Shown: positions 97-27,972 of the stretch, in pieces | Layout: each line of letters starts with the position of its first letter | Position numbering within the stretch: the first letter of the stretch is position 1 | DNA from: Prevotella sp. | Lineage (GTDB): Bacteria; Bacteroidota; Bacteroidia; Bacteroidales; Bacteroidaceae | Direction: 5' to 3' | Assembly (NCBI GenBank): GCA_021636625.1 | Contig: JAJWLX010000004.1 | Location: 48,004 to 112,003 of the forward strand | Length of the DNA: 64,000 nt | The notes under the pieces: model-generated | The model's database searches: none | The model's input: only the letters and a program-made list of their open reading frames with translations | Told to the model about the DNA's origin: nothing | Translations under genes and position numbers: made by a program

Positions 97-1485
97 TTAC
101 TCTTTAGAAGCTGGCTTCTGACCAGCCTGAACTGCAGAGAGAACAGCAGAGAGTGCTGCAGCAGCCTGTGCAGCCTTCTGCTTGTTTGGCTGTTGAGCTT
201 TCTGGTTGTTGTTTTGCTGCTCGTTGTTTCTTGGAGCATTGTTCTGTACCTCCTTCTGCTCGTTGTTTCTTGGAGCATTGTTCTGCGCCTCTTTCTGCTC
301 GTTGTTTCTTGGAGCATTGTTCTGTGCCTCCTTCTGCTCGTTACCCTTTGGTGCTCCCTGTTTTCCGTTCTTAGAAGGGAATGGAGATGGAGCATGCTTC
401 TTTGGAATAGAGAAGCGAACCTTTTCACTTTCATCTCGCTTCTCGTGATAGAGTTTTGGCAATGGGTTTGTACCCACCTCGTCACTTGTTTCGCGATGGC
501 GGAATGCATCGAGTGCCGTGAAGATAGCATGGCGGAAAGATGTTGGGTCTGCCTCGTTGCAGCCTGCCATGAAGTAGCAAGGAGTTGTGTTGGCTGCGGT
601 ATGGATGAGTGGCAAGCCTGCTGTGTAGAGCACGCCATCCTCGTTGTAGAGAGCATGGAATGGAACGGTAGCCTGATCGTAGTACATTGCCATGATTCCA
701 TCGAATTCGCTGAAGTAACCGCTGCCGAAGAATTCGTCTGCAGGGTAAGGACCAAACGCCTGGATTCCCTTGTCAGCAAGGTGGTCGATAGCCGGGATGA
801 TGATTTCGCGTTCCTCTTTGCCGCAACTCTGTTCCTCGTTGATGCTAGGATTCAGGGCGAGTACGGCGATACGTGGGTTGGTGATGAGGAAGTCGCGCTT
901 CAATGTCTGCCAGAGCAATGTTGTCTTGCTCACGATACTTTCCTGACTGATTGCACCAGTTACTTGAGCCAAAGGTGTCTTTTCTGTGATAGCTGCGATA
1001 CGGAGGTCGTCTCCGATGAGGATGCTCAGGGAACTGTTGCGGTCGCCGATGCATGTTTCGATATACTCCTTGTGTCCTTTGAAGGTATAGCCTTCAATCT
1101 TGACGTTCTGACTGCTGACTGGTGCTGTAATCAAGACATCGTAGAGATTGTTGCGATAGTCGGTCATAGCACGGTCGAGTGCTTTGATGGCTGCAGCTCC
1201 TGATTCATCAGTAGGAAGTCCCATATCTACCTTAACCTCTTCATCTACGGCTGCGAGGAGGTTGATACGTCCATCTTCTGCATCTTCTGCTTTCTGGATG
1301 ATAGAGAACTGGGCTGGCAGATTCATCGCCTTGCGATAATAAGCTGCCACTTTAGGTGAACCATAGATGATTGGGGTGCAAAACTCCAACATCTCTGGCT
1401 CACTGAATGCCTTAAAAATGAGTTCATATCCGATACCATTGGTATCTCCGTGGGTGATAGCCACCCTGATTTTCTTGTTGTCCAT
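97..1485 (-). CDS. pdxA: 4-hydroxythreonine-4-phosphate dehydrogenase PdxA, with a roughly 100-aa low-complexity C-terminal extension containing 13-aa tandem repeats
   Basis: Translation begins MDNKKIRVAITHGDTNGIGYELI, which is PdxA-family N-terminal and core sequence over about 350 aa. The tail carries NEQKEAQNNAPRN x3, encoded by a 39-bp DNA repeat. Confidence 0.8.
   Translation of the reverse strand: MDNKKIRVAITHGDTNGIGYELIFKAFSEPEMLEFCTPIIYGSPKVAAYYRKAMNLPAQFSIIQKAEDAEDGRINLLAAVDEEVKVDMGLPTDESGAAAIKALDRAMTDYRNNLYDVLITAPVSSQNVKIEGYTFKGHKEYIETCIGDRNSSLSILIGDDLRIAAITEKTPLAQVTGAISQESIVSKTTLLWQTLKRDFLITNPRIAVLALNPSINEEQSCGKEEREIIIPAIDHLADKGIQAFGPYPADEFFGSGYFSEFDGIMAMYYDQATVPFHALYNEDGVLYTAGLPLIHTAANTTPCYFMAGCNEADPTSFRHAIFTALDAFRHRETSDEVGTNPLPKLYHEKRDESEKVRFSIPKKHAPSPFPSKNGKQGAPKGNEQKEAQNNAPRNNEQKEAQNNAPRNNEQKEVQNNAPRNNEQQNNNQKAQQPNKQKAAQAAAALSAVLSAVQAGQKPASKE
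217..342. repeat. 39-bp tandem repeat, about 3.2 copies (ctgctcgttgtttcttggagcattgttctg[t/c][a/g]cctc[c/t]tt), in-frame inside the pdxA 3' end
   Basis: Direct inspection shows copies at 217-255, 256-294 and 295-333, plus a partial copy at 334-342. The period is 39 bp, equal to 13 codons. Confidence 0.9.
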
Positions 1486-1491
1486 TAATAC

Positions 1492-2439
1492 TTATTTTAT
1501 AGTAGAAATCGCAGCTTCGAGCTGCTTGATTAATATTTTCTTTTTCATTTCTGGAGCATAGACGAAGCCGATGATGTAGAGGTCGTAGCCTTGCTGCATT
1601 TCTGCTTGGCTTGTTGACTTATGAATGCGATGCATGACATAAGGTCCTCCCATGGCATCCCCCTTCATCTCCCAGAGCCCTCTTTCTGAAAGAACTGGAA
1701 TCTCCATATACATGCTGTCGGTTTCACCGGGCATGTTGGTTCGAAGAATGCTGTCAATCAGAGTTTTATCATTTGCATAAGCTGCATTTGAATTCTTCAT
1801 TCTTCGTTCTTCACTCTTCACTTTAAACACGAGCAGGTTTTGCATTCCCGTACTTGCATTATTCGAGATCCAGATGAAGTCTTTTGCTTTTTTGCTGGCG
1901 TTCATCGAGACCGGAATCTTCATGTCAATTCCAAACATCTTCTTGATTTCGTCCTGCATCTCCTTGTTTTGTTTGCTGGGGTTGCAGGAGATGATATCTG
2001 CCAGATGTTTCAACTCTACCTCATTCACGATTTGGCGGAGTCTTTCGCCATTGAGCCTTTCCTGCAACTGCTGTGCCGAGCGGGCTGTAATGCGGATGAT
2101 ATTCTGCGGTGCAGCATTTTCGTCGTGGCTCAGCCTGACGGAGAAATCCCGCTCTCCAATATTCACGACGATTCGGGTTCTGACGAGCAGATAGTTGCCC
2201 TGTGTCTTGCCCTTTTTCACCTGAATCAGTCGGCAAAGTGGTTCGGGTTGGGGCAGTCCTGTCACATCCTCCGTCAGCATCTTGGTCACGATGCTGTCGG
2301 TATCACCCTCGAGTACCACCTCGTAAGGTTGTCCCGTGCTGGCTGGCTTTTTCCTGTTCTTACCTGTTATATCGCAACTTGTCAGGAGAACGAATATAAG
2401 ATAGAACGGGAAAAGGAACGTTATCGTTTTTCTCACCAT
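1492..2439 (-). CDS. hypothetical lipoprotein; start reassigned to the internal Met (MVRKTITFLFPFYLIFVLLTSC)
   Basis: A signal peptide with lipobox-like LLTSC follows the internal Met. The longer ORF form would overlap the rlmN 3' end. The start lies 14 nt after the rlmN stop. Confidence 0.6.
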   Translation of the reverse strand: MVRKTITFLFPFYLIFVLLTSCDITGKNRKKPASTGQPYEVVLEGDTDSIVTKMLTEDVTGLPQPEPLCRLIQVKKGKTQGNYLLVRTRIVVNIGERDFSVRLSHDENAAPQNIIRITARSAQQLQERLNGERLRQIVNEVELKHLADIISCNPSKQNKEMQDEIKKMFGIDMKIPVSMNASKKAKDFIWISNNASTGMQNLLVFKVKSEERRMKNSNAAYANDKTLIDSILRTNMPGETDSMYMEIPVLSERGLWEMKGDAMGGPYVMHRIHKSTSQAEMQQGYDLYIIGFVYAPEMKKKILIKQLEAAISTIK

Positions 2440-2452
2440 TATGCTATTCTCT

Positions 2453-3523
2453 CTACATCTCCTCTTTCTGCTTCTCATCCTCATGATGTCGGATTTCTCC
2501 GATCTTTTTCGAGGTGCTGAGCAGACCGCAGGCTGCATAGATGTCCTGGCCGCGGCTGGCACGGATAGTGGTGAAAACACCGTGGGAAGTGAGGTAGTCA
2601 CGGAACTGCTCCATCTTCTCATCGTTCACACCCTGCAGCGGGATGTCGGGAATCTGATGGAAGCGGATGAGATTGAAACGGCAATCGAGCCCCTTCACCA
2701 GTTTGATGATGGCCTTGGCATGCTGCATACTGTCGTTCACTCCCTTGAATACGATGTACTCGAAACTCAGGCGGCGCTGATGAGAGAAATCGTAGTTCTT
2801 CAGAAGCTCTACCACCTGTTCTATACTCATTCCGCGTTCTGCAGGCATCAGTTCTGCACGTTCTGATGGTATCGGGTCGTGCATCGAAATTGCCACATGG
2901 CATTCGCTCTCTTCCAGGAATCGTTTCAGCTTGTTCTTCACGCCCACGGAACTTACTGTGATTCGTTTCGGACTCCACGCCCAACCATAATCGGCGGTGA
3001 GAATCTCGGTGGCACGAAGCACATTGTCGAGATTGTCCATCGGCTCGCCCTGTCCCATGAATACGATGTTGGTGAGCTTGTCCACCTCAGGCAGCGAGTA
3101 AATCTGGTTCAGGATGTCGCCGGCAGGTAAGCTACCCTCGAATCCCTGCTTTCCTGTCTGGCAGAAGAGGCAGTTCATTTTGCAGCCCACCTGTGATGAA
3201 ACGCAGAGGGTGGCACGGTCTTTATCCGGGATATAGACCGTTTCTACGAATTTGCCGCTTCGGGTAGGGAAGAGGTACTTGATGGTACCATCCACAGAGT
3301 ATTGTGCGTCAGAGAATTCTGCGCATCCTATTTCGTATTCGGCAGCGAGTTTGGCACGGTTGGCTTTCGAGATGTTGGTCATCTCATCAATGCTCTTTAC
3401 GTGCTGCTCATAGAGCCACTTCGCCATCTGTCCGCCGGTGAAGGCAGGCATGCCGAGATCCTTAGCCACCTGCTTCAATTCAGCAAGTGTAAGACCTAAA
3501 AGATATTTTTTTTCATTATTCAT
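2453..3523 (-). CDS. rlmN: 23S rRNA (adenine2503-C2)-methyltransferase RlmN (radical SAM)
   Basis: Radical SAM Cys cluster GCKMNCLFCQTG. Start reassigned to MNNEKKYLLGLTLAEL. Overall similarity to RlmN. Confidence 0.9.
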   Translation of the reverse strand: MNNEKKYLLGLTLAELKQVAKDLGMPAFTGGQMAKWLYEQHVKSIDEMTNISKANRAKLAAEYEIGCAEFSDAQYSVDGTIKYLFPTRSGKFVETVYIPDKDRATLCVSSQVGCKMNCLFCQTGKQGFEGSLPAGDILNQIYSLPEVDKLTNIVFMGQGEPMDNLDNVLRATEILTADYGWAWSPKRITVSSVGVKNKLKRFLEESECHVAISMHDPIPSERAELMPAERGMSIEQVVELLKNYDFSHQRRLSFEYIVFKGVNDSMQHAKAIIKLVKGLDCRFNLIRFHQIPDIPLQGVNDEKMEQFRDYLTSHGVFTTIRASRGQDIYAACGLLSTSKKIGEIRHHEDEKQKEEM

Positions 3524-3556
3524 ACTGCAAAGATACGCTTTTTTGCTGAAAAATTC

Positions 3557-3564
3557 GTATCTTT
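3557..3564 (+). promoter_or_regulatory. Bacteroidota -7 box (TAtcTTTG) in the rlmN / 3598-ORF intergenic region
   Basis: cgTAtcTTTGcc lies about 35 nt upstream of the ATG at 3598 and matches the TAnnTTTG consensus. Confidence 0.5.
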
Positions 3565-3597
3565 GCCACATATTTTAATATAATAAGCTAAAATAAG

Positions 3598-6500
3598 GTG
3601 AAAATGAGAGAAAAAATAGATCTTTTCTTGCCTTGTGACGACCTACAGGAAGCTAGATTTACGACCATAGATCTTCACGAAGACAAAACAGTACAGCATA
3701 TCAACCTCCTGGTGAGCGCTGACTTCGCTGCCCAGCATCCGGTGCCGGAAGGTTGCACCTTCATTGCCGTTGACCGCCTTGAGAGTTCTAACACAGTAGA
3801 GAGCATCGCTGAGAACACCGATGCCGACTATGTGTTGATCTGTACCAAAAATACAGATATCCGATGGGGCAATCTCGCATTGGAGCGTTTTCTCCGTGTG
3901 GCTGATGACACGGGAGCGGTGATGGTTTACTCTGATCATTACACAATGGTAGTGGATGAGGAGAAAACAGCCAAATTCCAGGCTTCATTGGGTGAAGATG
4001 CTTCTGACCTGGAAAAATCACTGAGAGTTCCTAAGTTGGAAAAGCATCCGGTAATCGACTATCAGCAGGGTTCACTCCGTGATGATTTCGATTTTGGAAG
4101 CCTCTGGCTCATCAAGGCACAGGCTCTCCGTGATTATGTAGCTCAGCGTGATCGTCAGGAATACCTCTATGCAGGTCTCTACGACCTGAGACTTTATCTG
4201 AGTCGAGTGGGAGAAATCTTCCATATCAATGAATATCTCTATACCGAGACAGAGAAGGACAATCGCAAGAGCGGTGAGAAGCAGTTCGACTATGTGAATC
4301 CTCGTAACAGGGAGGTGCAGATAGAAATGGAAAAGGTTTGTACCCAGCATCTGGGCAAATTGGGCGCTCTGATTGATACCTGTTACTATCGTCAGCCGAA
4401 TTTTGATGAGCAGGACTTTGAATATGAGGCATCTGTCATCATCCCAGTTTTCAATAGAGAGAAGACCATCGCAGACGCTGTGCTTAGTGCAATGTGCCAG
4501 AAGACTAATTTCAAGTTCAACGTCATAGTTGTAGATAATCATTCTACTGATCGTACAGGTGAAATCGTGCAGGCTATTGCTGATAGTACGAACTGGGATG
4601 TTGAGAAACTTGATTTGGAATATAAGGAGGGAAAGGTAAAATATACGATGCAGGAAAAGCTGGCTCCACGTCTCTTCCTGCTCCAACCTGCAAGCAAAGA
4701 CCTTGGAATAGGTGGCTGCTGGAATCTGGCCATCTCTAGCGAGTTTTGCGGAAAGTTTGCTGTTCAGCTCGATAGCGATGACCTCTATTCTTCTACCGAT
4801 ACACTGCAGAAGATAGTAGATGCTTTCCATCAGCAGAAGGCTGCGATGATTGTGGGTTCTTATCGTATGTGCGACTTCGATCTGCAGACCCTTCCTCCTG
4901 GACTTATCGACCATAAGGAGTGGACCGAAGAGAATGGCTGCAACAATGCGTTGCGCATCAATGGTTTAGGTGCTCCTCGTGCTTTCTTTACCCCGTTGGC
5001 AAGACAGATACAGTTTCCTAATACCAGCTATGGCGAGGACTATGCGATGGGCTTGGCTTTCTCTCGCCGCTACCGCATCGGCAGAATCTATGAGGAACTC
5101 TACCTCTGTCGTCGCTGGGGAGGAAACTCTGATGCAGCCCTCAGTATAGAAAAGGTGAACGCCAATAATCTTTATAAAGACCGTTTGCGCACCATGGAGT
5201 TGAAGGCACGTCAGCAGATGCTGTTGGGAAAGGCTGATATCATGGAAGATAGCAGTATCTCACGATTCTTCAATCGGCAGTTGGAGCAATGGGAGGAGGC
5301 TCGACATCGTTATCGCGACCTCAAGCACGTAGAGACCAAGACACTCTCTGAGTTTGTGAAGTTGCAGTGGAATCCGGCTCGTATGGTTAGCACGGGAGCC
5401 AAAATCGACAAGAAGGCATTGAGCGAGCGCCCTTGCTTCCTCTGTGCTTGCAATCGTCCGGAAGAACAGATGGTGCAGCAGATAGACGATAAGTTCCAAC
5501 TTCTGGTGAATCCGTTCCCTATCTTGCCAATCCATTTCACGATCCCGGCACGCAAACACCAGTATCAGCTCATCTATAAGAACTATGGTGAGATGCACAG
5601 ATTCCTGAGTCTTCACAGCGACTTGATGGTATTCTATAATGGTCCGAAGTGTGGAGCTTCTGCTCCAGACCACCTGCATTTCCAGGCTGGTTCTAGTGGA
5701 CTTCTTCCTTTGCAGGCAAACTGGCAGCGGCTTTCCCGCAATCTTACCGACATCATCTCGCTGAATGATGATGAGAAGATTGCATTGATTCGCGATTTCA
5801 TCGTGCCAGCCTTTGTTATTATCTCGAAGAGCGAAGAGAGTGATGAAACCCTCTTCCGCCGACTTTACAAGGCTTTGCCTCATCGTGGCGACGAGAAAGA
5901 GCCAATGATGAACATTGTAGCCTGGTGTAAGTGCGAAGAATTCATCACTGTGGTTATCCCAAGAGAGAAACATCGACCAGATGCTTACTTTGCTGAAGGG
6001 GATGCACAGGTGATGGTTTCGCCGGGAGCACTCGATATGAGCGGACTCATCATTACTCCTCGTGAGGAAGATTTCCGTAAACTCACCGATGAAAAGGCTA
6101 CTGCTATCTTGCAGGAATGCGGTATCAGTCCAGAGAAGGTAGAGACTATCGTTAATAAGCTGAAGGCGGCAAAGGAGGCTAAGGCTGCTGTCGGAACTTC
6201 TGCCTTATATAATAATGGTAAGGAGCCGGAAGTAACTGTTGGAATCGTGAGTGCCCAGAAGGTTCATTTCATACTCAACAAACCTTATCTTGCCAAGGGA
6301 GAAATCGTGATTGGTGAGCAGGAGGTGGAATTCTCTGAAGGTGGTGTACTTTGGAATGGAAATCAGTATAGTTCACTGACTTTCCATCCGCAGAGTCCGG
6401 ATGCCTCTTTCTCTTTGAGTGATGTAACCATCGGTGTGAACTTCCATTGGGAGCGCAAGGAAACCCAGACTTTCCAGGGTACGCTGAGATTCCTGGTAGA

Positions 6501-7545
6501 ATCTGATAAGATTTTAGCCATCAACGAGCTGCCTGTAGAGAAATATCTGGAGAGTGTCATCAGCAGTGAGATGAGTGCCACATCCAGTCTCGAACTCCTG
6601 AAGGCGCACGCCGTGATTTCCCGTTCTTGGCTTTTGGCTCAGATGCAGCATCGCAGAGAGGTGGCGGAGAGTGGCAACAATTTCTTCTCTTTTGTGAAGA
6701 AGGAAGATATGCTCATCCGTTGGTACGATCGCGAAGATCATACTCTTTTCGATGTTTGTGCCGATGATCATTGTCAGCGTTATCAGGGAATTACGAAGGA
6801 AACCTCACCACATGTGGCAGAGGCGGTAAGACTCACCAGAGGACAGGTTCTGCTGGATGGTGATGAGATTTGTGATGCCAGATTCTCGAAGTGTTGTGGC
6901 GGTATTACCGAAGAGTTCCAGTATTGCTGGGAGAATACGCCGAAGAATTATCTCACAGCCGTAAGGGATATTGCCTTGGGTGTAGAGGATGCAAAGGTTA
7001 TGCCTGATCTTACCAGCGAGGAAGAGGCTGAGAAGTGGATTCGCTCGAACCCACCTGCTTTCTGCAATACGACAGACAAGAAGATTCTTTCGCAGGTATT
7101 GAATGACTATGACCAGGAGACTGCCGATTTCTATCGCTGGAAGGTAACGCTCACTCAGGAGAAACTCCAGCAGCTTATCGCTGACAAACTGAAGATGGAT
7201 TTTGGTGCCATCCTCGACCTGAAGGCCGTTGAGCGAGGTAAGAGTGGAAGAATCAGCAAACTCCAGATTATCGGTACCGAGAAGACCTTCACCATCGGTA
7301 AGGAACTCGAAATCCGACGTGCACTCAGCGATTCTCATCTTTTAAGTTCTGCTTTTGTGGTAGATAAACAGGATGAAGATGAGCAGGGAGTACCTCAGCG
7401 TTTCGAACTCATCGGTGCAGGATGGGGCCATGGAGTAGGTCTCTGTCAGATTGGTGCTGCGATGATGGGCGAGGAGGGGTATCTCTATGATGCTATCCTC
7501 CTGCACTACTATCAGGGTGCAGAAATCAAGAAACTCTATAAATAA
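3598..7545 (+). CDS. multidomain protein: N-terminal region of unknown function, family 2 glycosyltransferase, DUF4922 (GalT/HIT-like nucleotidyltransferase fold), SpoIID/LytB domain
   Basis: GT2 signature [22 protein letters not shown]...[16 protein letters not shown] from about nt 4430. [10 protein letters not shown] and an HxHxQ-like DHLHFQAG near nt 5430-5690. C-terminal SpoIID/LytB-like [38 protein letters not shown]. Confidence 0.8.
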
Positions 7546-7554
7546 AGCTGTAGA

Positions 7555-8889
7555 ATGGGAACATTGAAAAATAGTCGGAATCCATGGGCTTGGATTCCGA
7601 CACTCTACTTTGCGGAAGGACTGCCTAACGTTATCGTGACAGCCCTCTCTGTGGTTATGTATATGCAGTTGGGCTTGACCGATGCTGAGGTGGGTCTCTA
7701 TACCGGATGGCTCGCCCTGCCTTGGGTTATCAAACCCTTGTGGAGTCCATTCATCGACCTGCTGAAGACCAAGCGCTGGTGGGTATTGACGATGCAGGCG
7801 CTCATCGGAGCAGCTCTTGCCGGAATCGCCTTTTCGCTGCCTACTGCCTTCTGGTTCCAGGCAACGATGTGTTTCTTCTTCCTCATCGCCTTCTGTAGTG
7901 CCACCCACGATATTTCGGCGGATGGTTTCTATATGATAGAGTTGGATGAGCATACGCAGACCAAGTTCGTGGGTTTGAGAAACACCTTCTATCGCCTTGC
8001 CATCATTTTCGTGAATGGATTCCTGGTGATGCTGGCTGGTGTTCTCCAAGTGCTGTTCCGTAACCAGATTCGCTTCTCATGGGCGCTTATCTTCTACGGA
8101 TTGGCAGGTATCTTCATCGGATTGTGGCTCTATCATAGCCGGTTCATGCCGCGTCCGAAGGAGGATGTGCAGACCGATAGAACGGTGGGTGAAGTGGCGC
8201 ACGAACTGAAGAATATGTTCCGCACTTTCTTTGTGAAATTCGGATTGGGAGAAACCATCTGTGTGATGCTCTTCCTCCTGCTTTATCGTTTCCCGGAAGC
8301 ACTCTTGAATACGATGACCAAAACCTTCATCCTTCGTCCTAATTCGCAGGGCGGACTGGGATTGTCTCCGCAGGAATATGGCTTTGCCAATGGTACTGTT
8401 GGACTGATCGGTTTGCTGCTGGGTGGTATCATCGGCGGTATTCTGGTGAGCCGCGATGGTATGAAGAAATGGCTTTGGCCGATGGTTTGCGCCATCACCC
8501 TGCCGGATGTGGTTTACATCTATCTGAGCTATTCGCTGAACAGCGACATCATCGTGGTTTCAAGCTGTCTCTTTATCGAGCAGTTCGGTTATGGTTTGGG
8601 CTTCACGGTTCTTACCCTTTATATGCTGTTCTATAGCCAGGGCAAGTTCAAGACATCCCATTATTCCATCTGTACAGGTATCTCTTATTTAGGTTTGATG
8701 TTGCCAGGTATGGTTTCGGGATATCTGAAAGATATGGTAGGCTATCGCTTGTTCTTCATTATCGTGATGGCATGCTGCGCCATCACCTTCCTGGTTACCG
8801 CTTTCCTGAAGATAGATCCTGAGTTCGGAAAGAAAGAGAAGGAGATCAAGGAGGCAATAGAAGAGGAAGAAATGGAAGTGCTAGAATAA
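7555..8889 (+). CDS. MFS permease, AmpG-like (putative muropeptide transporter)
   Basis: Multi-pass membrane protein with PWVIKPLWSPFID, which resembles the conserved AmpG loop. It starts 10 nt after the SpoIID-domain gene. Confidence 0.7.
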   Translation: MGTLKNSRNPWAWIPTLYFAEGLPNVIVTALSVVMYMQLGLTDAEVGLYTGWLALPWVIKPLWSPFIDLLKTKRWWVLTMQALIGAALAGIAFSLPTAFWFQATMCFFFLIAFCSATHDISADGFYMIELDEHTQTKFVGLRNTFYRLAIIFVNGFLVMLAGVLQVLFRNQIRFSWALIFYGLAGIFIGLWLYHSRFMPRPKEDVQTDRTVGEVAHELKNMFRTFFVKFGLGETICVMLFLLLYRFPEALLNTMTKTFILRPNSQGGLGLSPQEYGFANGTVGLIGLLLGGIIGGILVSRDGMKKWLWPMVCAITLPDVVYIYLSYSLNSDIIVVSSCLFIEQFGYGLGFTVLTLYMLFYSQGKFKTSHYSICTGISYLGLMLPGMVSGYLKDMVGYRLFFIIVMACCAITFLVTAFLKIDPEFGKKEKEIKEAIEEEEMEVLE

Positions 8890-8922
8890 TATTTCTATAT
8901 ATAAATAGGTGAAAATCTGAGA

Positions 8923-8957
8923 AAAGGTCGTTGGGTATCGTCCCAACGACCTTTTTA
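8923..8957 (+). terminator. rho-independent terminator after the AmpG-like gene
   Basis: 13-bp perfect stem aaaggtcgttggg / cccaacgaccttt with a 6-nt loop, followed by a T-run. Confidence 0.7.
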
Positions 8958-8992
8958 CGTTAAAGTATTTGAAATCTTTTTCTTCTGCCCTT

Positions 8993-9040
8993 GTGATATC
9001 ATTTTAATATCGTATATTTGCGATATCAAAATGATATCAA
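8993..9040 (+). promoter_or_regulatory. SPFH operon promoter (-7 box TAtaTTTG at 9013-9020) overlapped by three GATATC palindromes, a candidate operator
   Basis: tGATATCa at 8995-9000, cGATATCa at 9022-9027 and tGATATCa at 9033-9038. The last two are 11 bp apart and lie at or just past the predicted transcription start. Confidence 0.5.
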
Positions 9041-9070
9041 CATCAATAACGTAATAAATAAAGTAAAATT

Positions 9071-10039
9071 ATGGAGAATAAGGAATTTACGTATCAGGGA
9101 AAGACCTTGAATGGCATCCTGATGTTAGTATTAAACATCATCGGCTTTCTGGCTGGAGTTGGCTTGTTTATATTTGCCTGCGTTTCGCAAGAAGGCTGGC
9201 TGGCAAATGTCTGTGGTGTTTGTGGCGTACTGCTTCTCATCCTGAGCATCATCTGCGTCTGCGGTTTCATCCTGGTAGAGCCGGGTCAGGCTCGCGTATT
9301 GCTTTTCTTCGGTAAGTATCGTGGCACTTTTACAGAGCCGGGTTACTATTGGCTGAATCCGTTTATCAGTCAGAAGAAGCTTTCGCTTCGTGTGCGCAAC
9401 CTCGATGCCGAACCTATCAAGGTGAATGACAAGACGGGTAATCCGATTATGATTGGTATGGTGCTGGTATGGAAACTGAAAGATACCTACAAGGCTATCT
9501 TTGAGATTGATACCCAGACGATGGCTGAGGGTTCTACAGGTCAGGCTGGCATTGGTGCTTCTGCTGCACAGATCATGAACATGCTGGGCCGCTTTGTCCA
9601 GATTCAGGCAGATGCCGCTCTCCGTCAGGTAGCTGGACAGTATGCCTACGATGATGACGAGGGTGGAAAGTCGAATCAGATTACGCTTCGAGATGGAAGT
9701 GATGAGATTAACAAGGAGTTGGAGGCTCGCATCGACGAGCGCTTGGCGATGGCAGGTATTGAGGTAGTAGAGGCTCGCATCAACTATCTGGCTTATGCAC
9801 CGGAGATTGCAGCCGTGATGCTTCGTCGCCAGCAGGCTTCAGCCATCATCTCTGCCAGAGAGAAGATAGTTGAGGGAGCCGTGTCGATGGTGAAAATGGC
9901 ATTGCAGAAGTTGAGCGATGAAGATGTGGTAGAGCTTGATGACGACAAGAAGGCTGCCATGGTCAGCAATCTGCTCGTAGTGCTCTGTGGCGATGATACC
10001 GCCCAGCCTGTAGTAAATACGGGAACATTGAATCATTAA
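9071..10039 (+). CDS. SPFH/band 7 (stomatin/prohibitin-like) domain membrane protein
   Basis: N-terminal transmembrane segments, then a band-7 core: LNPFISQKKLSLRVRNLDAEPIKVNDKTGNPIMIGMVLVWKL. Confidence 0.85.
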   Translation: MENKEFTYQGKTLNGILMLVLNIIGFLAGVGLFIFACVSQEGWLANVCGVCGVLLLILSIICVCGFILVEPGQARVLLFFGKYRGTFTEPGYYWLNPFISQKKLSLRVRNLDAEPIKVNDKTGNPIMIGMVLVWKLKDTYKAIFEIDTQTMAEGSTGQAGIGASAAQIMNMLGRFVQIQADAALRQVAGQYAYDDDEGGKSNQITLRDGSDEINKELEARIDERLAMAGIEVVEARINYLAYAPEIAAVMLRRQQASAIISAREKIVEGAVSMVKMALQKLSDEDVVELDDDKKAAMVSNLLVVLCGDDTAQPVVNTGTLNH

Positions 10040-10045: not shown

Positions 10046-10288
10046 ATGGCTAAAAAGGAAACAAATACGAAGAGTTTTATATTGCGCATTGATTCGGAAA
10101 CGATGAGTGCCATTGAAGCGTGGGCGGAGGATGAGTTCCGCTCAACCAACGGCCAGCTGCAATGGATCATCGCTGAAGCGCTGCGCAAGGCTGGCAGACT
10201 GCCTAAGAAAAAGAAGGCTGCATCAAAGAAAACGAAGGAAGAAGTCGATTCAAATCAAATAGGAGGGGAAAAGAAAGATGAAGAATAA
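10046..10288 (+). CDS. small Arc/ribbon-helix-helix-like DNA-binding protein
   Basis: 80 aa with a KSFILRIDSETMSAIEAWAEDEFRSTNGQLQWIIAEAL beta-alpha-alpha pattern and a Lys-rich tail. It starts 7 nt after the SPFH stop. Confidence 0.55.
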   Translation: MAKKETNTKSFILRIDSETMSAIEAWAEDEFRSTNGQLQWIIAEALRKAGRLPKKKKAASKKTKEEVDSNQIGGEKKDEE

Positions 10289-11033
10289 AATATTTAGATT
10301 TGTGCTTGATTTATTCAAAAATGGCGATAAGGAAGAGCAGGCTGGCATCTTTGCGCAAGTCAAGATCTATCGTTCTACAAGTGCCAGGGTCTTTGAAATT
10401 ATTGTAGGAATCCTGGTTCTTGCCATGTGGCTGCTCACCATCAGGAATGTCATTCATGCCACATCTGATGATTTGCCTTATCTTCTTCTGTTGGCTGGAA
10501 TGGGTACTTTTTTCCCTATTGCTTGTTTGCTTCACAGCTATCATCCAAAGGCCAATGACTTTCCTTTTGTCAAGATTGTCAATGCCCGACAGGTATATTA
10601 CCTGTCCCTGTTGGGTCGCTATGCAGCTTTATGGTCAGCCCTCTTCTGGTTATGGATTAGTTGTATGGATTTTATCGGAAGTGAGCCTGTATTTGTGGGT
10701 GGAGTGATCGTTTGCTGTGTTCTTTTATGTCTGAACGGTGTATTCTTTTTTTATAAGATATACCAGTTGAGAAACCTGGTAGAAGTAGAGGATCCTGAGC
10801 CAGCTATCAAAAACGAGAAACTCTTGACTATCGGTGTATTGGTATTGACGGCGGTTTTAGGTTTTGCGTTGCATCTCCTGCCGATTTGGGATTGTATGCC
10901 AAAGATATTAAGTGGAATTTTAAGAGGAATCCTCGTCATAGCAATGGTAGTAGGCATCGTCTGGGTATGCAAGAGATACTTCGGCCTTTTCCGTGAAATA
11001 GATAAAGACGCCTCCGATTCATCCAGGAAATAG
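10278..11033 (+). CDS. hypothetical integral membrane protein (about 5 TM segments), translationally coupled to the RHH gene
   Basis: Its start overlaps the upstream stop by 11 nt. The protein is hydrophobic with a multi-pass profile and shows no recognisable family. Confidence 0.55.
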   Translation: MKNKIFRFVLDLFKNGDKEEQAGIFAQVKIYRSTSARVFEIIVGILVLAMWLLTIRNVIHATSDDLPYLLLLAGMGTFFPIACLLHSYHPKANDFPFVKIVNARQVYYLSLLGRYAALWSALFWLWISCMDFIGSEPVFVGGVIVCCVLLCLNGVFFFYKIYQLRNLVEVEDPEPAIKNEKLLTIGVLVLTAVLGFALHLLPIWDCMPKILSGILRGILVIAMVVGIVWVCKRYFGLFREIDKDASDSSRK

Positions 11034-16113: not shown

Positions 16114-17597
16114 TGAAACGAATCTTTATCTCAATGACAGGTTTCATCACCTGTATGAACCTGATGGCACAAACTCCTGTCAGTTTTTATCCTCAGGAGA
16201 ATGACCAAGACATCAACATCGATACACATCTGGTCATCGTGTTTGACAAGACAGTAAAGACTGGCAGCAAGGGCATAATCACTGTTACGGACAAGACAAC
16301 TCGAAAAGTGGTTGATAGAATCGACATGAGCATTCCGGCGGGACCAACCGAAGGACAGCCCAAGAATCCAAATGCTGTCTATACTCCCGTTCCCTATATA
16401 TATAAGGTGGAGAATGTAACCAATCGCAATACTCGTCCTGGAACTCCATCAGGTGCTGCCCAGGAAGACAAGCGCAAGTATCAGAAGACCATCATTGGTG
16501 GATTCTCTGATGCCTTTCACTTCTATCCTGTCATCTGTCATGGGAACAAAGCAACCATTTATCTGCATAACAGTATGCTGGAATATGGACATGAATATGA
16601 AATCAAGATTAGCAAGGGTACGATTGAGGGATGGAATGGCAAGAAGTCATGGACGTTTAGGACTAAGAAAAACGCCCCTTCTGCAGATTTGCGTCATATC
16701 GTTGTGGCAGCTGATGGCAGCGGAGACTTCTCCACTCTGCAAGGTGCCATGGATTGGATACCAGACTCATTGCCTTCTGAAGCCAGCAGGAAAAAGGTTT
16801 TCGTGAAGAATGGAGATTATGAAGAGCTGGTTTATTTCCGCAATAAGCGATTCGTAACTATCCAAGGAGAATCCATGGATGGGGTAGTGGTACATTACCC
16901 CAATAACGAGGTATTCAATCCTCACCCGGTTGATATCAAGACCAATGAGCAGAAAGGAACATTCCCTTCTCGCCGTGCAGCTGTGGCAGCAGACAACTGT
17001 GCCGACATGATTTTCAAGAATATCACCTTCAAGACTGATTGCAAGGGACAGGCTGAGGGATTCCTGCTCAATGGTGAAAGAAACTTTGCTGAGAATGTGC
17101 ATGTAATCGGTGATGGTGATGCTCTTCAGGTGAATGGTTCTGCCTACTGGCTCAACTGCGTGATTGATGGAGGAGGTGACACGGTGCTGGGTAGAGGTCC
17201 ATCCTATTTCAATCACTGTACACTTTCCAGCTATGGTGCTTTCATGTGGATTAGAAATACCAGGGAGAACCATGGTAACATCTTCAATGACTGTACCTTC
17301 AAGGGATTGGGCAAGGATGCCGTGATAGCCCGCCTTCCTGACAACAAGGGCAGAAATTATCCTGATGCGGAATGCGTGCTGCTGAACTGTACGCTTGATG
17401 GTGTGCTTTCTGAAGGCTTTGGCCCCATAGATGAGTCGGCATCTACGGCAAATCTCCTGGAATTCAACAGCCATGACAAGGAAGGTAAAACTATAGATAT
17501 CAGCAAGAGAAACAAGCATGTACGTCAGCTTGACGCCATCAAGGATGCTGAGACAATCGGAAAATACTCCAATGCAAGTTGGGTACTGAATTGGTAA
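16114..17597 (+). CDS. pectinesterase (carbohydrate esterase family 8) with an N-terminal Ig-like domain
   Basis: Signal peptide MKRIFISMTGFITCMNLMAQT. CE8 hallmark VAADGSGDFSTLQGAMDWIP. Start reassigned downstream of the terminator at 15865-15918. Confidence 0.8.
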
Positions 17598-17630
17598 GAA
17601 AGGAGATTAATATAAATACCGGATGCCCTC

Positions 17631-18887
17631 TCATCGGTGTCTGCTTGCCTTCATTGGGTATTCTTCAACGCTTTTCTTCTGGGTATTCGGCAAGAATCCT
17701 GCAATGATGCCGAGCAATGGCAGGAAGGCACTCACCTGGAAGATGAACTCAATACTGGTCTTGTCGGCTAGCCATCCGAAGAAAGCTGAACCCAGTCCTC
17801 CCAGTCCGAACATCAGTCCGAAGAAAATGCCTGCTATCAATCCCACTTTATCTGGCATCAGGTCGGTGGCATATACCACGATGGAAGAGAATGCCGAGGC
17901 GATGATCAAGCCGGAAAGGAAGGTACAGATGATGGTCCACGTGAAGTTGACGAAAGGCATGGCGATGGCAAAAGGGGCTGCTCCCAGAATGGAGAACCAG
18001 ATGACATACTTTCTGCCAAACTTGTCACCCAGCATGCCTCCTGCTACGGTACCTATGGCAAAGGCGGCAAGGAATACGAAGAGGCACAGCTGCGAGGTCT
18101 GCACCGAAACCCCGAACTTATCTATCAGGAAGAAGGTGAAGTAACTCGTAATACAGGCTGTATAGAAATACTTGGAGAACACGAGCATGATGAGGATGAA
18201 CAGAGCCCAATACTTCACCCTTTTAGAGATATGAGTGTTGAGAAGCGGTTGTTTCTGCGGATGGTTCACCACGTAAGCCAATCGTGCCTTATACCAGACT
18301 CCCAATCTTACCATGATGATGGCGGCCAGTAGGGCTGCAAGGGCAAACCAGGAGATGGCATGCTGACCGAAAGGAAGGATGATGATGGCTGCAAGCAATG
18401 GTCCTATTGCAGAACCTCCATTGCCACCCACCTGGAAGATGGATTGTGCCAGACTCTTCTTGCCTCCCGATGCCATCTGTGCCACTCTCGATGCTGTGGG
18501 ATGAAACACGGACGAACCCAGACCTACAACGCTCACTGCCAGGAGAATCAGGAAGTAATTCTCGGCGAAAGCCAGCAGGAGCAGGCCCATCAATGTGAAA
18601 CACATGCCGATGGAGAGGGCATAGGGACGGGGATGCTTATCGGCATAAAGTCCTGTGAAAGGTTGCAGAATAGAAGATGTCATCTGGAAAACCAGCGTGA
18701 TGATGCCTATCTGTGCAAACGAGAAATCGAACTTATCCTTCACAATCGGATAGATGGAAGGGATAATCGACTGAATCATATCGTTCAGGAAATGGGAAAT
18801 GCTACAGATGATGAGCATGGAATACACTGTACCCTCTACCATCGTAGGATTTCCCTTGATTTTACTGCCTATAGACTTGATGTTCAT
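17631..18887 (-). CDS. MFS transporter (Fsr/drug-efflux-like)
   Basis: 12-TM profile with HFLNDMIQSIIPSIYPIVKDKF and LQPFTGLYADKH motifs. The true start may be the internal Met at 18842. Confidence 0.8.
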   Translation of the reverse strand: MNIKSIGSKIKGNPTMVEGTVYSMLIICSISHFLNDMIQSIIPSIYPIVKDKFDFSFAQIGIITLVFQMTSSILQPFTGLYADKHPRPYALSIGMCFTLMGLLLLAFAENYFLILLAVSVVGLGSSVFHPTASRVAQMASGGKKSLAQSIFQVGGNGGSAIGPLLAAIIILPFGQHAISWFALAALLAAIIMVRLGVWYKARLAYVVNHPQKQPLLNTHISKRVKYWALFILIMLVFSKYFYTACITSYFTFFLIDKFGVSVQTSQLCLFVFLAAFAIGTVAGGMLGDKFGRKYVIWFSILGAAPFAIAMPFVNFTWTIICTFLSGLIIASAFSSIVVYATDLMPDKVGLIAGIFFGLMFGLGGLGSAFFGWLADKTSIEFIFQVSAFLPLLGIIAGFLPNTQKKSVEEYPMKASRHR

Positions 18888-18902
18888 TTCTTTTTTACTC
18901 TC

Positions 18903-19436
18903 TTATTTGAAAATCAACTTTTTATGCTGTTTTTGTTCTGCTTCAAGCTCCAATAACCTTCTCTTTGCGTCTAATCCTCCGGCAAAACCTGTAAGGCAAT
19001 GATTGCTACCGATAACACGATGGCAGGGAATGAAAATGCTGATGCCATTAGCTCCGATGGCACCTGCCACGGCTCTTGTGCCATTGGGGTTACCCATACT
19101 TATGGCTATTTCCTTATAGTTTCTTGTTTCTCCGTAGGGTATGTTGAGCAATGCATGCCATACTTTTTTCTGAAAATCGGTTCCTATAGGACGCAACGGA
19201 ATATCGAATATCTTGCGGATGCCGGTGAAATATTCATTCAGCTGCTTCTTGGCAAGTTCCAGGATAGGGGTTGTCTCAATTTTGAACTCAGCCTTCATAT
19301 ACTGCGAAACCCGAAGCTTATTGCGCTCTGCATATGGCATTTCATTCCAATCACAAAGACACAAATCATCACCCACAGATGCCAGAATTAACTCTCCGCA
19401 GGGCGAGTTGTAATATTGGATGTTTATTTGCTGCAT
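18903..19436 (-). CDS. ogt: methylated-DNA--protein-cysteine methyltransferase
   Basis: Active-site IPCHRVIGSN motif, 177 aa. Confidence 0.85.
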   Translation of the reverse strand: MQQINIQYYNSPCGELILASVGDDLCLCDWNEMPYAERNKLRVSQYMKAEFKIETTPILELAKKQLNEYFTGIRKIFDIPLRPIGTDFQKKVWHALLNIPYGETRNYKEIAISMGNPNGTRAVAGAIGANGISIFIPCHRVIGSNHCLTGFAGGLDAKRRLLELEAEQKQHKKLIFK

Positions 19437-23156: not shown

Positions 23157-24545
23157 ATGGAAACAATAAACAAAAGATTTGTGTATTTCATCTGTCTGGT
23201 ATCGGCGATGGGTGGATTGCTGTTCGGTTACGATTGGGTAGTGATTGGTGGTGCCAAACCCTTCTACGAACTGTATTATCAGATAGCCGATAACCCTTCA
23301 GACCAAGGTTTGGCGATGACCATCGCCTTGATAGGCTGTCTGATAGGAGCGATGCTCTGCGGTTCGCTTGCCGACCGTATCGGAAGAAAGAAGCTTCTGA
23401 TTGTTGCCGCCCTGATCTTTTTCTTCTCGGCAATAGCAACGGGAATAGCTGACACCTTCAGCTACTTTCTGGTGGCCCGTTTCTTCGGAGGCATCGGTAT
23501 CGGAGTGGCTTCTGGACTTTCACCTATGTATATTGCAGAAGTGGCACCTACCTCCATCAGAGGAAAACTGGTTTCTTTGAACCAATTGACCATCGTGCTT
23601 GGTATTCTGGCGGCGCAGATAACCAACTGGCTGATAGCAGAACCTATCCCAGTTTCTTTCTCCTCAGCAGATATTGCTGCATCCTGGAATGGGCAGATGG
23701 CTTGGCGATGGATGTTCTGGGCGGCAGCCTTTCCTGCGGCAGTATTCTGTGTGATGGCTTGCTTCATTCCAGAAAGCCCCCGTTGGCTGGCTATGAAAAA
23801 TAGAGAAAAGAAAGCTTTCGTTACATTGAATAAGATAGGTGGAAACAGCTATGCACAGGCTGAGTCGCAGGCCGTGAGAGAGGCAAACGAAAAGGACTCC
23901 TCGCAGGCAGGACTGAAGACTTTGTTCAGCAAGCCTTATCGCAAGGTGCTCCTGCTGGGTGTGGTGGTTGCCTTCTTCCAACAATGGTGCGGAACGAATG
24001 TCATCTTCAATTATGCGCAGGAGATATTCCAGTCGGCAGGTTATGCTATCGGCGATGTGCTTTTCAATATCGTGGTAACGGGAATAGCCAATGTTATCTT
24101 TACATTTGTGGCCATCTTCACGGTAGATAAATGGGGTAGAAAGGCTTTGATGAAACTGGGTGCCGGCGGACTTTGCGGCATCTATCTTATTCTGGGCATC
24201 TGTTATTTCTTCCAGATTACAGGATGGTTTATGATCGTGCTGGTAGTGGCAGCCATCGCCTGCTATGCCATGACGCTGGGGCCTGTTACCTGGGTGCTTC
24301 TGGCAGAAATCTTCCCTAACAGGGTGCGTGCCGTGGCGGTAGCTACCAGTACCTTTGCCCTCTGGGTGGGAAGTTCTACGCTTACTTATACATTCCCATT
24401 GCTCAATGTGGCACTGGGCAGTTATGGTACCTTCTGGATTTATAGTGCAGTATGTCTGGGTGGTTTCCTCTTCGTCTCTTTACTGTTACCTGAGACCAAA
24501 GGCAAATCGCTCGAAGAATTGGAAAAAGAATTAATAAAACATTAA
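23157..24545 (+). CDS. sugar porter family MFS transporter (xylose/arabinose:H+ symporter-like)
   Basis: Sugar-porter signatures GYDWVVIGGAKPF, DRIGRKK, PESPRWL and PETKGKSLEELE. Confidence 0.9.
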   Translation: METINKRFVYFICLVSAMGGLLFGYDWVVIGGAKPFYELYYQIADNPSDQGLAMTIALIGCLIGAMLCGSLADRIGRKKLLIVAALIFFFSAIATGIADTFSYFLVARFFGGIGIGVASGLSPMYIAEVAPTSIRGKLVSLNQLTIVLGILAAQITNWLIAEPIPVSFSSADIAASWNGQMAWRWMFWAAAFPAAVFCVMACFIPESPRWLAMKNREKKAFVTLNKIGGNSYAQAESQAVREANEKDSSQAGLKTLFSKPYRKVLLLGVVVAFFQQWCGTNVIFNYAQEIFQSAGYAIGDVLFNIVVTGIANVIFTFVAIFTVDKWGRKALMKLGAGGLCGIYLILGICYFFQITGWFMIVLVVAAIACYAMTLGPVTWVLLAEIFPNRVRAVAVATSTFALWVGSSTLTYTFPLLNVALGSYGTFWIYSAVCLGGFLFVSLLLPETKGKSLEELEKELIKH

Positions 24546-24551
24546 ATAATT

Positions 24552-27500: not shown

Positions 27501-27884
27501 GGACCTCAGGAACCAGCTGCTGCCATGTATTACAATGATGCCAAGCCTGACAAGATTTTCTATCAGGGATTGGCTCTCCTGAAACTGGGCAGAGTGGATG
27601 AGGCTCATGGCCGATTCTATAAGCTCGTGAATTATGGTAAGAATCATCTCTTCGATGAGGTAGTGATGGATTACTTTGCCGTATCATTGCCTGATTTGCA
27701 GATTTGGGAGGGAGATTTGAATCTCTCTAATCAGATACATTGCAAGTACATGCTTGCCCTTGGTTTCTATGGCTTGGGCGATAAGAAGCATGCTGAGCGT
27801 TATCTGAAAGAGGCTTCCCGGTTGGATAAGAATCATTTGGGTATCTTGTCATTCAAGAGTTTGATAGAATTAGGTTTGTTGTGA
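24552..27884 (+). CDS. DUF5107 domain protein with a C-terminal TPR-repeat region (1110 aa)
   Basis: The N-terminus MVKAWRETVVIPTYEVGTPEKNPIFLEKRVYQGSSGVVYPYP is characteristic of DUF5107. TPR-like repeats run from about aa 480 onward. Confidence 0.7.
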   Translation: MVKAWRETVVIPTYEVGTPEKNPIFLEKRVYQGSSGVVYPYPVIERISDEKVDKEWHAIWIENEYIKVMILPELGGRVQMAYDKIKQRHFVYYNHVIKPALVGLTGPWISGGIEFNWPQHHRPSTYLPVDSTIEENEDGSVTVWVSETEKMFHQKGMAGFTLRPGKAYLEIKGQLYNRTNVPQTFLWWANPAVAVNDYYQSVFPPDINAVFDHGKRAVSSFPIATGTYYKMDYSAGVDISNYKNIKVPTSYMGVNSMYDFEGGYENDTQAGMLHVANHHVSPGKKQWTWGNGDFGQAWDRNLTDEDGPYIELMAGVFTENQPDFTWLMPYEEKRFTQYFMPYRELGVVKDATKDLIMNIDFVDDQGNVTQENTSGKVNFKVFATSKQEVRVILDDKEGECYNKVVTLSPEEVLDETIEVGDCSWYNLSFSIESLDGKYLMLWEHENDKIRPIPDPAEAALLPEQIKTNDQLYLTGLHLEQYRHATYNPVDYYEEALRRDPMDYRCNNALGLWYIRKCRFDKAEKYLRRAVKVLMKRNPNPYDGEPIYNLGLVLKYQGNIWEAYDMFYKSTWNGAWQDAGFFECAQISVMQHRMDDASEEIENSLIRNTHNHKARALKAAILRLTDKKDEAVAWCEESLKIDQFNYGCLFELFLSTDNKKYLDKMVEMMHGMPNNYDELALDYTGAGLYGEALKVLQAAIDNKAVTPMTYYYLGWVLRKKDTDDWEIAESAYDQASKYPSDYCFPNRPEAVLALKDAMHMNGKDAKAPYYLGCLYYDKRQYDVAMEVWRESAEIDPKFPTVWRNLALGLFNKEHKGEEAVKYMEKAFQLDASDARILMELDQLYKRLGYDHAMRLKYLQQYPELIAKRDDLLLEEITLLNQTGNYAEAMKKLDSHQFHPWEGGEGKVSGQYQLCRLELAKKALVAKDYYTAISLLEECLVYPHHLGEGKLYGAQENDFYYFLGCAYAAKGMADKAKECWEEATKGPQEPAAAMYYNDAKPDKIFYQGLALLKLGRVDEAHGRFYKLVNYGKNHLFDEVVMDYFAVSLPDLQIWEGDLNLSNQIHCKYMLALGFYGLGDKKHAERYLKEASRLDKNHLGILSFKSLIELGLL

Positions 27885-27970: not shown

Positions 27971-27972
27971 TG

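Follow-up and report, generated by a model that had tools for sequence, protein, structure and literature searches.

What does a protein do in which glycosyltransferase, HIT-type and SpoIID/LytB modules are joined in one chain, and whose gene is directly followed by a gene for an AmpG-like permease? Such a fusion gene is present in Prevotella sp. on a stretch of 64,000 nt (GCA_021636625.1, contig JAJWLX010000004.1, 48,004-112,003 of the forward strand), which is called the window here and to which all nucleotide positions refer. The sequence evidence described below suggests that the fusion protein is a cytoplasmic processor of the peptidoglycan disaccharides imported by AmpG, and we give this reading a probability of about 0.55.

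The open reading frame (ORF) is unbroken from 3598 (GTG) to 7545 on the + strand, as the initial annotation described, and encodes 1315 aa as a mechanical ORF. According to the comparison of N-termini, the homologs all start with MREKIDLF. Thus, the true start is almost certainly ATG 3604, and the protein then has 1313 residues instead of 1315. The gene and its modules are as follows.

3604..7545, + strand: fusion gene, 1313 aa, stop codon 7543-7545, without signal peptide and without transmembrane segment
3604..4428, + strand: module 1a, divergent GT-A-fold domain (GT-A'), aa 1-275, without Pfam match
4429..5223, + strand: module 1b, family-2 glycosyltransferase (GT2), PF00535, aa 276-540
5242..6156, + strand: module 2, HIT-superfamily phosphorylase or nucleotidyltransferase of the GalT/Apa/GDPGP1 type, aa 547-851
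6214..7542, + strand: module 3, SpoIID/LytB lytic-transglycosylase-like module, aa 871-1313

The architecture is GT-A', GT2, HIT-type DUF4922 with GDPGP1_C, and SpoIID/LytB, in this order. The GT2, DUF4922 and SpoIID/LytB assignments proposed from the sequence alone are confirmed by Pfam (PF00535, PF16269 and PF08486, all above their cutoffs) and by TIGR02669. The N-terminal region of about 280 aa had been left without a function, and it is actually a second glycosyltransferase-type domain. Sequence searches of this region against Pfam and the PDB found nothing, and only structure prediction (aa 1-275) resolved its GT-A Rossmann-like fold of about 275 aa. Its conserved motifs are Y-[SAG]-D111, a motif at 156-165, and QFDYV.PRN..Q.E (227-243). 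At the usual DxD position (end of beta4) there is a single Asp, D111, and a canonical DxD is not apparent. The first ~85 aa of the domain are variable or missing in relatives. In the following GT2 domain, Pfam Glycos_transf_2 (PF00535) matches aa 277-426 with 59.5 bits (cutoff 23.3), and the typical motifs are the DxD in QLDSDD (388-393) and SYGEDYA (475-481). The NCBIfam GT2 equivalogs match only the first ~55 residues of the domain, far under their cutoffs. The window protein carries two charged low-complexity inserts, one in GT-A' (aa ~117-145, nt 3950-4040) and one in GT2 (aa ~333-357, nt 4600-4675). They explain its length of 1313 aa against 1269 aa in homologs of the S. copri group; other relatives have different inserts at these places.

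The HIT module matches Pfam DUF4922 (PF16269) over aa 555-696 with 208.5 bits (cutoff 23.6), and the protein has weaker Pfam matches to Ap4A_phos_N and ATP_transf. A GDPGP1_C (PF26216) half-domain, seen as a weak precomputed match on homologs, follows DUF4922; this half-domain and the start of the SpoIID module at about residue 871 are added to the anatomy initially described. The HxHxQ-like motif reported there, DHLHFQAG, is present at residues 689-696 (nt 5668-5691), and its DHLHFQ part (nt 5668-5685) aligns with the catalytic DHKHLQ of the yeast Ap4A phosphorylase Apa2. A GalT-like CxxC is formed by C611 and C614 (nt 5434-5445). The predicted structure is a two-half HIT fold. The closest structures by Foldseek are Apa2 (4i5t, E 2e-9, TMt 0.54-0.61), the GalT-like ADP-glucose phosphorylase 1z84 (E 9e-5) and GalT 1hxq (E 2e-3), and the sequence identity to these solved relatives is 11-19%. 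The Pfam families, the HxHxQ motif and the fold are thus common to this module and to VTC2/GGP, GDPGP1, Apa1/2 and GalT, whereas the module described here is a bacterial domain lodged between a GT2 and a SpoIID domain. The literature on DUF4922 covers plant and animal GDP-hexose phosphorylases only.

In the C-terminal module, Pfam SpoIID (PF08486) matches aa 967-1083 (83.6 bits, cutoff 23), and the NCBIfam family SpoIID_LytB (TIGR02669) matches aa 972-1310 (164 bits, cutoff 83.3). The stage II sporulation protein D equivalog TIGR02870 reaches 117 bits, under its cutoff of 234.75. The predicted structure has the fold of C. difficile SpoIID (5i1t, Foldseek E 1.8e-12, TM-score 0.76). The predicted catalytic residue is E989 (nt 6568-6570), which lies in SSEMSAT and corresponds to the essential E101 of C. 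difficile; in the alignment with 4rwr and 5i1t, SSEMSAT falls on their catalytic-Glu motif. The SEM motif and a C-terminal GHGVG motif are shared with SpoIID (B. subtilis and C. difficile) and LytB. The Zn-type motif H1046-x5-C1052-x3-H1056-C1057 (nt 6739-6774) equals the Zn site of C. difficile SpoIID in its residues, and the spacing differs by one position from H134-x5-C140-x4-H145-C146 (PMC6221140). Canonical SpoIID, in which the roles of the residues are known, cuts denuded peptide-free glycan and releases N-acetylglucosamine-1,6-anhydro-N-acetylmuramic acid (GlcNAc-1,6-anhydroMurNAc) (PMC6221140). An extra insertion of ~90 aa with its own conserved residues is located at about aa 1110-1200. 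The model of the C-terminal 769 aa has a predicted local distance difference (pLDDT) score of 88.3 and a predicted TM-score (pTM) of 0.60, and the inter-domain geometry is uncertain.

Two homologs vary in this module. In P0013 (1346 aa), a Ser/Ala-rich insert of ~50 aa follows LVLGVEGSNLG in the insertion region, which shows that a surface loop of the SpoIID module tolerates large inserts. In P0011 (NCBI, 1307 aa), an exact tandem duplication of ~38 aa is found inside the catalytic C-terminus, for which misassembly or a recent event in that genome is the likely cause.

The conservation of the active sites was analysed using the best 150 representatives, with mutual identity of 50% or less, aligned by MAFFT. 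In the GT2 domain, D390, D392 and D393 are kept in 70/70 representatives and E478/D479 in 73/73. In the HIT module, H690 and H692 are kept in all 96 representatives and Q694 in 95 of the 96, and the CxxC is kept in nearly all. In the SpoIID module, E989 is observed in 86/86 representatives, and H1046, C1052, H1056 and C1057 in 86-88 of 88. The catalytic motifs are near-invariant, and therefore the GT2, HIT and SpoIID modules look enzymatically competent.

Canonical SpoIID and LytB are extracytoplasmic (PMC6221140). The fusion protein, unlike them, has neither an anchor nor a signal peptide and is joined to cytoplasmic enzymes, and its host is a non-sporulating Gram-negative bacterium. No segment reaches a Kyte-Doolittle 19-residue hydropathy of 1.6 or more (the maximum is 1.33), and the N-terminus is charged. 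Signal peptides and transmembrane segments are likewise missing from the relatives inspected (10 of full length, 8 with DUF4922 and SpoIID, and 16 with SpoIID alone). In the last group, the first beta-strand, M..P.I.VGIL, stands at the very start of the sequence. We also considered that the fusion N-terminus might be that of a lipoprotein and rejected this, as its h-region is too short and carries charges, and relatives do not conserve the Cys. GT2 and HIT enzymes require cytoplasmic nucleotide substrates. Since export signals are lacking and these partners need the cytoplasm, the SpoIID clade of the fusion family is predicted to be cytoplasmic. Because neither the fusion nor the stand-alone members carry a signal peptide or transmembrane segment, the SpoIID domain should meet imported fragments in the cytoplasm.

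The gene occurs very widely. A word-indexed search found at least 8000 homologs with the same domain set. The best 120 homologs, from ENA, Logan, JGI and NCBI assemblies, are all full length (1269-1346 aa) and carry the Pfam set GT2, DUF4922, GDPGP1_C and SpoIID. A 99%-identical protein of 1313 aa is present on 4 contigs and heads a 90%-identity cluster of 5798 sequences. A homolog of 82% identity lies in the same context of rlmN (minus strand), fusion, major facilitator superfamily (MFS) gene and Band_7 gene. An exhaustive representative search with aa 114-1313 as the query matched 16582 representative clusters at E<=1e-3 and 1649 at E<=1e-30; a profile search with a diverse alignment returned the same S. 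copri-group proteins only. Relatives are encoded in the genomes of at least 598 GTDB species representatives, and the best 80 of them belong to Segatella, Prevotella, Xylanibacter, Palleniella, Paraprevotella, Alloprevotella, Bacteroides and Odoribacter. The window protein is nearest to the Segatella (Prevotella copri) group with 81-82% identity. Full-length fusions are still seen at 42-55% identity; the genomes that carry them include those of isolates, for example Segatella buccae ATCC 33574 and Prevotella multiformis DSM 16608. The names of the relatives in the databases are generic ('DUF4922 domain-containing protein', 'SpoIID/LytB domain protein', 'glycosyltransferase involved in cell wall biosynthesis').

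The same modules are also observed as separate genes. The best 150 representatives comprise full-length proteins (1076-1294 aa), N-GT2-DUF4922 proteins (~800 aa), DUF4922-SpoIID proteins (~770 aa), N-GT2 proteins (~480 aa) and SpoIID alone (~445 aa), and for each state there are clusters of several members whose length does not vary. Three consecutive genes (488+310+442 aa and similar) are found in Bacteroides clarus, Odoribacter and one metagenome-assembled genome (MAG) of Prevotella, and two genes (~480 + ~770 aa, or 837 + 395 aa) in several Bacteroidales MAGs. The borders of the split genes map to the domain borders of the window protein, at residues ~540/547 and ~851/871; the N-GT2 proteins end at ~536-540, and the DUF4922 gene covers 547-851. 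This is the classic Rosetta-stone pattern of fusion and fission: as the modules occur as one, two or three genes split at domain borders, the three modules are predicted to work together.

The gene downstream of the fusion supplies the context.

7555..8889, + strand: AmpG-family MFS permease, 444 aa, starting 9 nt past the fusion stop codon

The family given by the initial annotation holds, and its gap of 10 nt is corrected to 9 nt. The protein is a multi-spanning MFS member, and its residues 15-408 align with the solved E. coli AmpG (8zgz, E 2e-18). Among 70 related loci whose downstream sequence covers 1.2 kb or more, 56 have an AmpG-like gene directly downstream and on the same strand, and one more has it at 1.3 kb. 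In Paraprevotella a MurK-like kinase gene follows ampG, and several MAGs add NamZ. The split locus of B. clarus (L049) is the most extended. Its order is SSF symporter, Golvesin_C protein, metallophosphoesterase-beta-propeller protein, N-GT2, DUF4922, SpoIID and AmpG, and AmpG is followed by NamZ (GH171), an FAD/FeS oxidase, a NagX/MurT-like membrane protein, a BadF-type sugar kinase and the MurQ etherase (TIGR00274, 311.7 bits, cutoff 302). The AmpG-like protein of this murQ operon is 44% identical to the window permease. The conserved ampG synteny strongly backs a link of the fusion to cell-wall sugar recycling, and the ampG-namZ-murK-murQ operon of B. clarus supports it as well. A cell-wall glycan modification or recycling pathway had been proposed for the locus; its recycling side gains support here, whereas an action of the SpoIID domain on the wall itself is doubtful, as export signals are lacking.

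Further genes of the B. clarus locus were noted. The oxidase (16296-19292), between namZ and murT-murK-murQ, is a ~1000-aa FAD-oxidase/4Fe-4S/CCG protein of the D-lactate/glycolate dehydrogenase type. It would fit an oxidation of the D-lactate released by MurQ, and it does not appear in the gene lists of the Tannerella forsythia operon (PMC5388701; bioRxiv 10.1101/2021.12.02.470905). Upstream of the split genes (4971-9964), the Golvesin_C protein has 1029 aa, and the protein with metallophosphoesterase and PQQ-like beta-propeller has 624 aa. The former probably corresponds to Tanf_08345, the 'xanthan lyase' of T. forsythia.

The T. forsythia operon Tanf_08345-08385 encodes xanthan lyase, Gtf (Tanf_08350), Gtf (Tanf_08355), LytB (Tanf_08360), AmpG (Tanf_08365), NamZ1 (YbbC), MurT, MurK and MurQ, and it is co-transcribed and activated by GppX (PMC5388701). 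The functional order of glycosyltransferase(s), LytB and AmpG is the same as described here, and it is sequence-verified in B. clarus including NamZ, the MurT-like and MurK-like proteins and MurQ. In the window, by difference, the three upstream genes are one polypeptide, only ampG is linked, and namZ and murTKQ are not present. By gene order, the fusion corresponds to a fused form of the three-gene set Gtf-Gtf-LytB (Tanf_08350-08360). Tanf_08355 is called a glycosyltransferase in the literature, whereas its positional counterpart in the window is a HIT-type phosphorylase or nucleotidyltransferase. A Tn-seq paper on the T9SS of P. gingivalis has nothing on this gene set. In the paper on NamZ, LytB is a putative lytic transglycosylase, and the function of the two Gtf genes is stated to be unknown (bioRxiv 10.1101/2021.12.02.470905). 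The initial statement that the locus had not been characterised as a unit is therefore right as to function, but the split set has already been drawn as a co-transcribed unit in T. forsythia (PMC5388701; bioRxiv 10.1101/2021.12.02.470905).

T. forsythia AmpG imports peptide-free GlcNAc-anhMurNAc and GlcNAc-MurNAc (PMC5388701, PMC7670621), and by gene order the window permease would be its counterpart with the same cargo. T. forsythia grows on the anhydro form and is reported to lack the ATP-dependent anhydroMurNAc kinase AnmK, and its downstream route was called unexplored by the authors (PMC7670621). For the fusion protein we propose the following steps. The cytoplasmic SpoIID-like domain would bind the imported disaccharide and open or transfer its 1,6-anhydro or glycosidic bond. 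The GT-A domains would interconvert a glycoside and a nucleoside diphosphate (NDP)-sugar, and the HIT phosphorylase would interconvert NDP-sugar plus inorganic phosphate and sugar-1-phosphate plus NDP. Imported wall sugars may in this way enter metabolism or the wall-precursor pools without AnmK. The 1,6-anhydro bond is a glycosidic bond, and if water, phosphate or a sugar hydroxyl opens it, the chemistry is that of a lytic transglycosylase in reverse. As the SpoIID-like enzyme is predicted to be cytoplasmic and is encoded beside an importer of the anhydro-disaccharide, it would meet the product of the canonical reaction.

A stricter form of the scheme bypasses AnmK without ATP and conserves the bond energy. 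Here the SpoIID-like domain would run the lytic transglycosylase reaction backwards and open GlcNAc-anhMurNAc onto an acceptor, the GT-A and HIT modules would pass on the glycosyl units as NDP-sugars or sugar-1-phosphates, and UDP-MurNAc, MurNAc-1-phosphate or GlcNAc-1-phosphate may be produced directly for wall synthesis. We put this form forward tentatively and consider it unlikely. Compared with the proteobacterial AmpG-AnmK-NagZ-MurQ recycling, the importer of the AmpG family for anhydro-disaccharides is shared, and MurQ and kinase genes are present in the B. clarus locus. The differences are that no AnmK is linked, and that the GT/HIT/SpoIID set beside ampG is not part of the proteobacterial pathway.

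Several points weigh against the proposal of a cytoplasmic processor. The substrates, the directions of the reactions and the role in place of AnmK are what we infer. Glycosyltransferases usually run in the synthetic direction. The nearest characterised HIT relatives use GDP-hexoses or Ap4A and not UDP-amino sugars. The best NCBIfam family of the permease is AmpG (TIGR00901), but with 160 bits it stays under the cutoff of 350. An AmpG-like gene was not found within 10 kb or less in 12 of the 70 loci, and no other neighbour recurs in these 12, where the genes seen are unrelated (GH92, GH109, YceG/MltG, peptidases and a phosphoesterase). No further gene of the MurNAc pathway is located within the rest of the window. 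The equivalence to T. forsythia rests on gene order, annotation and the B. clarus locus, and not on direct sequence comparison. Finally, the first description of the T. forsythia operon linked it to glycosylation, and its mutant phenotype concerns surface-protein modification (PMC5388701; PMC5706477).

The last point leads to a biosynthetic explanation, by which the GT-A pair and the HIT domain, as a sugar-1-phosphate nucleotidyltransferase, make or modify a glycan or glycoconjugate (for example an exopolysaccharide, or the sugars on surface proteins), the SpoIID-like domain binds or trims glycan, and the link to ampG reflects only shared amino-sugar supply or regulation. The intact DxD and ED motifs of GT2 suit this explanation, and a T. 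forsythia gppX mutant with reduced expression of the operon showed altered surface-protein modification and loss of the glycosyltransferase TF1061 (PMC5388701; PMC5706477). The fusion also resembles polymerases with two GT-A domains, of which the bifunctional chondroitin polymerase K4CP of E. coli K4 is an example. Unlike in K4CP, however, the N-domain appears to lack a canonical DxD (D111 only), HIT and SpoIID modules are attached, and there is no linked gene for a polymer product or for export. In all loci examined, the fusion has no linked gene for a flippase, a polymerase, a priming transferase or the synthesis of sugar nucleotides; the conserved partners are the importer and catabolic enzymes (AmpG, NamZ, MurK-like, MurQ), the protein has no membrane anchor, and the strict conservation of the SpoIID Glu and the Zn site would be unexpected for a mere binding module. 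We consider the biosynthetic explanation unlikely. The same conserved Glu argues for catalysis rather than binding alone, and hence against a sensor, in which the SpoIID-like domain would sense imported anhydromuropeptide and the GT and HIT modules would tune the nucleotide-sugar pools and match wall-precursor supply to turnover, for example by phosphorolysing, like GDPGP1, an NDP-sugar that is wrong or in excess. In that case the fragment would not itself be catabolised. Cytosolic anhydromuropeptides are signals in the AmpG/AmpR systems of Proteobacteria, which favours sensing, and this signalling serves as a reporter assay in one of the T. forsythia studies (PMC5388701). The nearest characterised DUF4922 proteins (GDPGP1 and VTC2/GGP) are NDP-hexose phosphorylases with regulatory or quality-control roles. 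On the other hand, both in B. clarus and in T. forsythia the operon is a catabolic one, and Pfam and NCBIfam scans of the fusion found no DNA-binding or signalling output domain, so that a sensor appears improbable.

If the module were a conventional LytB, the SpoIID/LytB part would be exported and would cut peptidoglycan outside the cytoplasm to feed AmpG, and the fusion would be incidental or the protein cleaved. Such a role agrees with the names given to Tanf_08360, 'amidase enhancer precursor' and 'putative lytic transglycosylase' (PMC5388701; bioRxiv 10.1101/2021.12.02.470905), with the lytic transglycosylase activity in T. forsythia extracts (PMC7670621) and with the extracytoplasmic place of canonical SpoIID and LytB (PMC6221140). 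It is nevertheless very hard to reconcile with the absence of signal peptide, lipobox and transmembrane segment in the fusion and in all 16 stand-alone members, with the covalent position of the domain C-terminal to nucleotide-sugar enzymes needing cytoplasmic substrates in thousands of genomes, and with a score of half the SpoIID equivalog cutoff (117 against 234.75 bits). An artefact of assembly or frame that joins separate neighbour genes had been raised at the outset, and the occurrence of the same modules as separate genes in some Bacteroidales would speak for it. This alternative fails against the independent assemblies with the full-length fusion (120/120 best homologs, the cluster of 5798 and at least 8000 homologs with the same Pfam set, divergent fusions at 42-55% identity, and isolates), and we regard it as scarcely conceivable. 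The comparison of orthologous loci suggested with the initial annotation was performed, and it gave modules that are fused or lie in two or three adjacent genes with conserved linkage to ampG; the suggested structure predictions gave the GT-A', HIT (4i5t) and SpoIID (5i1t) folds. We therefore retain the cytoplasmic processor as the best explanation.

The transcription unit was examined around the two genes, and the following elements were found.

3558..3565, + strand: predicted -7 promoter box TATCTTTG of the Bacteroidetes type, 38 nt upstream of ATG 3604
8921..8956, + strand: terminator-like hairpin with a 15-bp perfect stem, a 6-nt loop and a T run at the end, 32 nt past the ampG stop
9013-9020: next -7 box TATATTTG, ahead of the next gene (Band_7 protein)

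The pattern TANNTTTG is over-represented in the window (66 matches against 35.8 expected, and 0/100 shuffles reach 66), and a promoter role of TATCTTTG is suggested by the Bacteroides consensus. The RNA fold of the hairpin has -24.9 kcal/mol and z = -6.7, and 0/200 shuffles are equally stable. According to the -7 box upstream, the hairpin after ampG and the new -7 box before the Band_7 gene, the fusion gene and ampG appear to form a separate operon of just these two genes. Together with the -7 box of the divergent rlmN gene, the TATCTTTG box makes up a perfect inverted repeat of 11 bp (3527-3537 / 3556-3566). The arms GCAAAGATACG and CGTATCTTTGC (window 3527-3566) are two divergent TAnnTTTG -7 boxes, and the box for rlmN on the minus strand (3528-3535) is only ~8 nt from the likely rlmN ATG near 3520. 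The inverted repeat between rlmN and the fusion gene could serve both genes in regulation.

Upstream of the fusion gene, a pdxA - DUF4837 - rlmN block occupies 97-3571 on the minus strand. It adjoins the fusion in many Prevotellaceae loci and is sometimes moved downstream of ampG (L011, L013, L025, L071), and this neighbourhood is stable, without an obvious functional link to the fusion. The Band_7/SPFH gene is followed by two overlapping ORFs of 80 aa and 251 aa, the latter without Pfam family (10046-11033), and the trio of the Band_7/SPFH gene and the two ORFs is kept in loci of the S. copri group (L001, L002, L003). The region 23157-34107 encodes a sugar transporter, a 1110-aa DUF5107-TPR protein, a GH35 beta-galactosidase-like protein and a GH2 protein for unrelated carbohydrate utilisation, and FeoAB and SecA lie beyond it. 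In an Alloprevotella MAG with no adjacent ampG (L072, 10950-11993), a YceG/MltG-family protein is encoded directly downstream of the fusion; YceG/MltG is a lytic transglycosylase of the peptidoglycan terminase type.

The superfamily of each domain and the gene neighbourhood in T. forsythia were known before. The new points are that the single polypeptide is seen to be the split gene set of the T. forsythia type in fused form, that one published 'Gtf' is re-assigned to the HIT phosphorylase family and a second, cryptic GT-A domain is identified, that a LytB/SpoIID clade is predicted to be cytoplasmic, and that the modules form, together with ampG, a tightly linked unit in hundreds of species. 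The fusion has real potential to represent a new pathway if its chemistry is confirmed.

In the gut and the mouth, fragments of peptidoglycan serve as a nutrient, as a currency of recycling and as a signal to the immune system. The pathway that follows AmpG import is incomplete in Bacteroidales, and the modules of the fusion are a concrete and testable candidate for this gap. A bypass of AnmK, if true, would explain how T. forsythia, and possibly other Bacteroidales, live on anhydro-muropeptides without this kinase, and a route free of ATP would be attractive for anaerobes and for a MurNAc auxotroph. A cytoplasmic SpoIID clade, if true, would be unusual for peptidoglycan enzymology. The fusion gene is among the most commonly recovered proteins of the Segatella copri-group bacteria of the human gut, and the pathway, if true, would be quantitatively relevant to muropeptide turnover in the gut.

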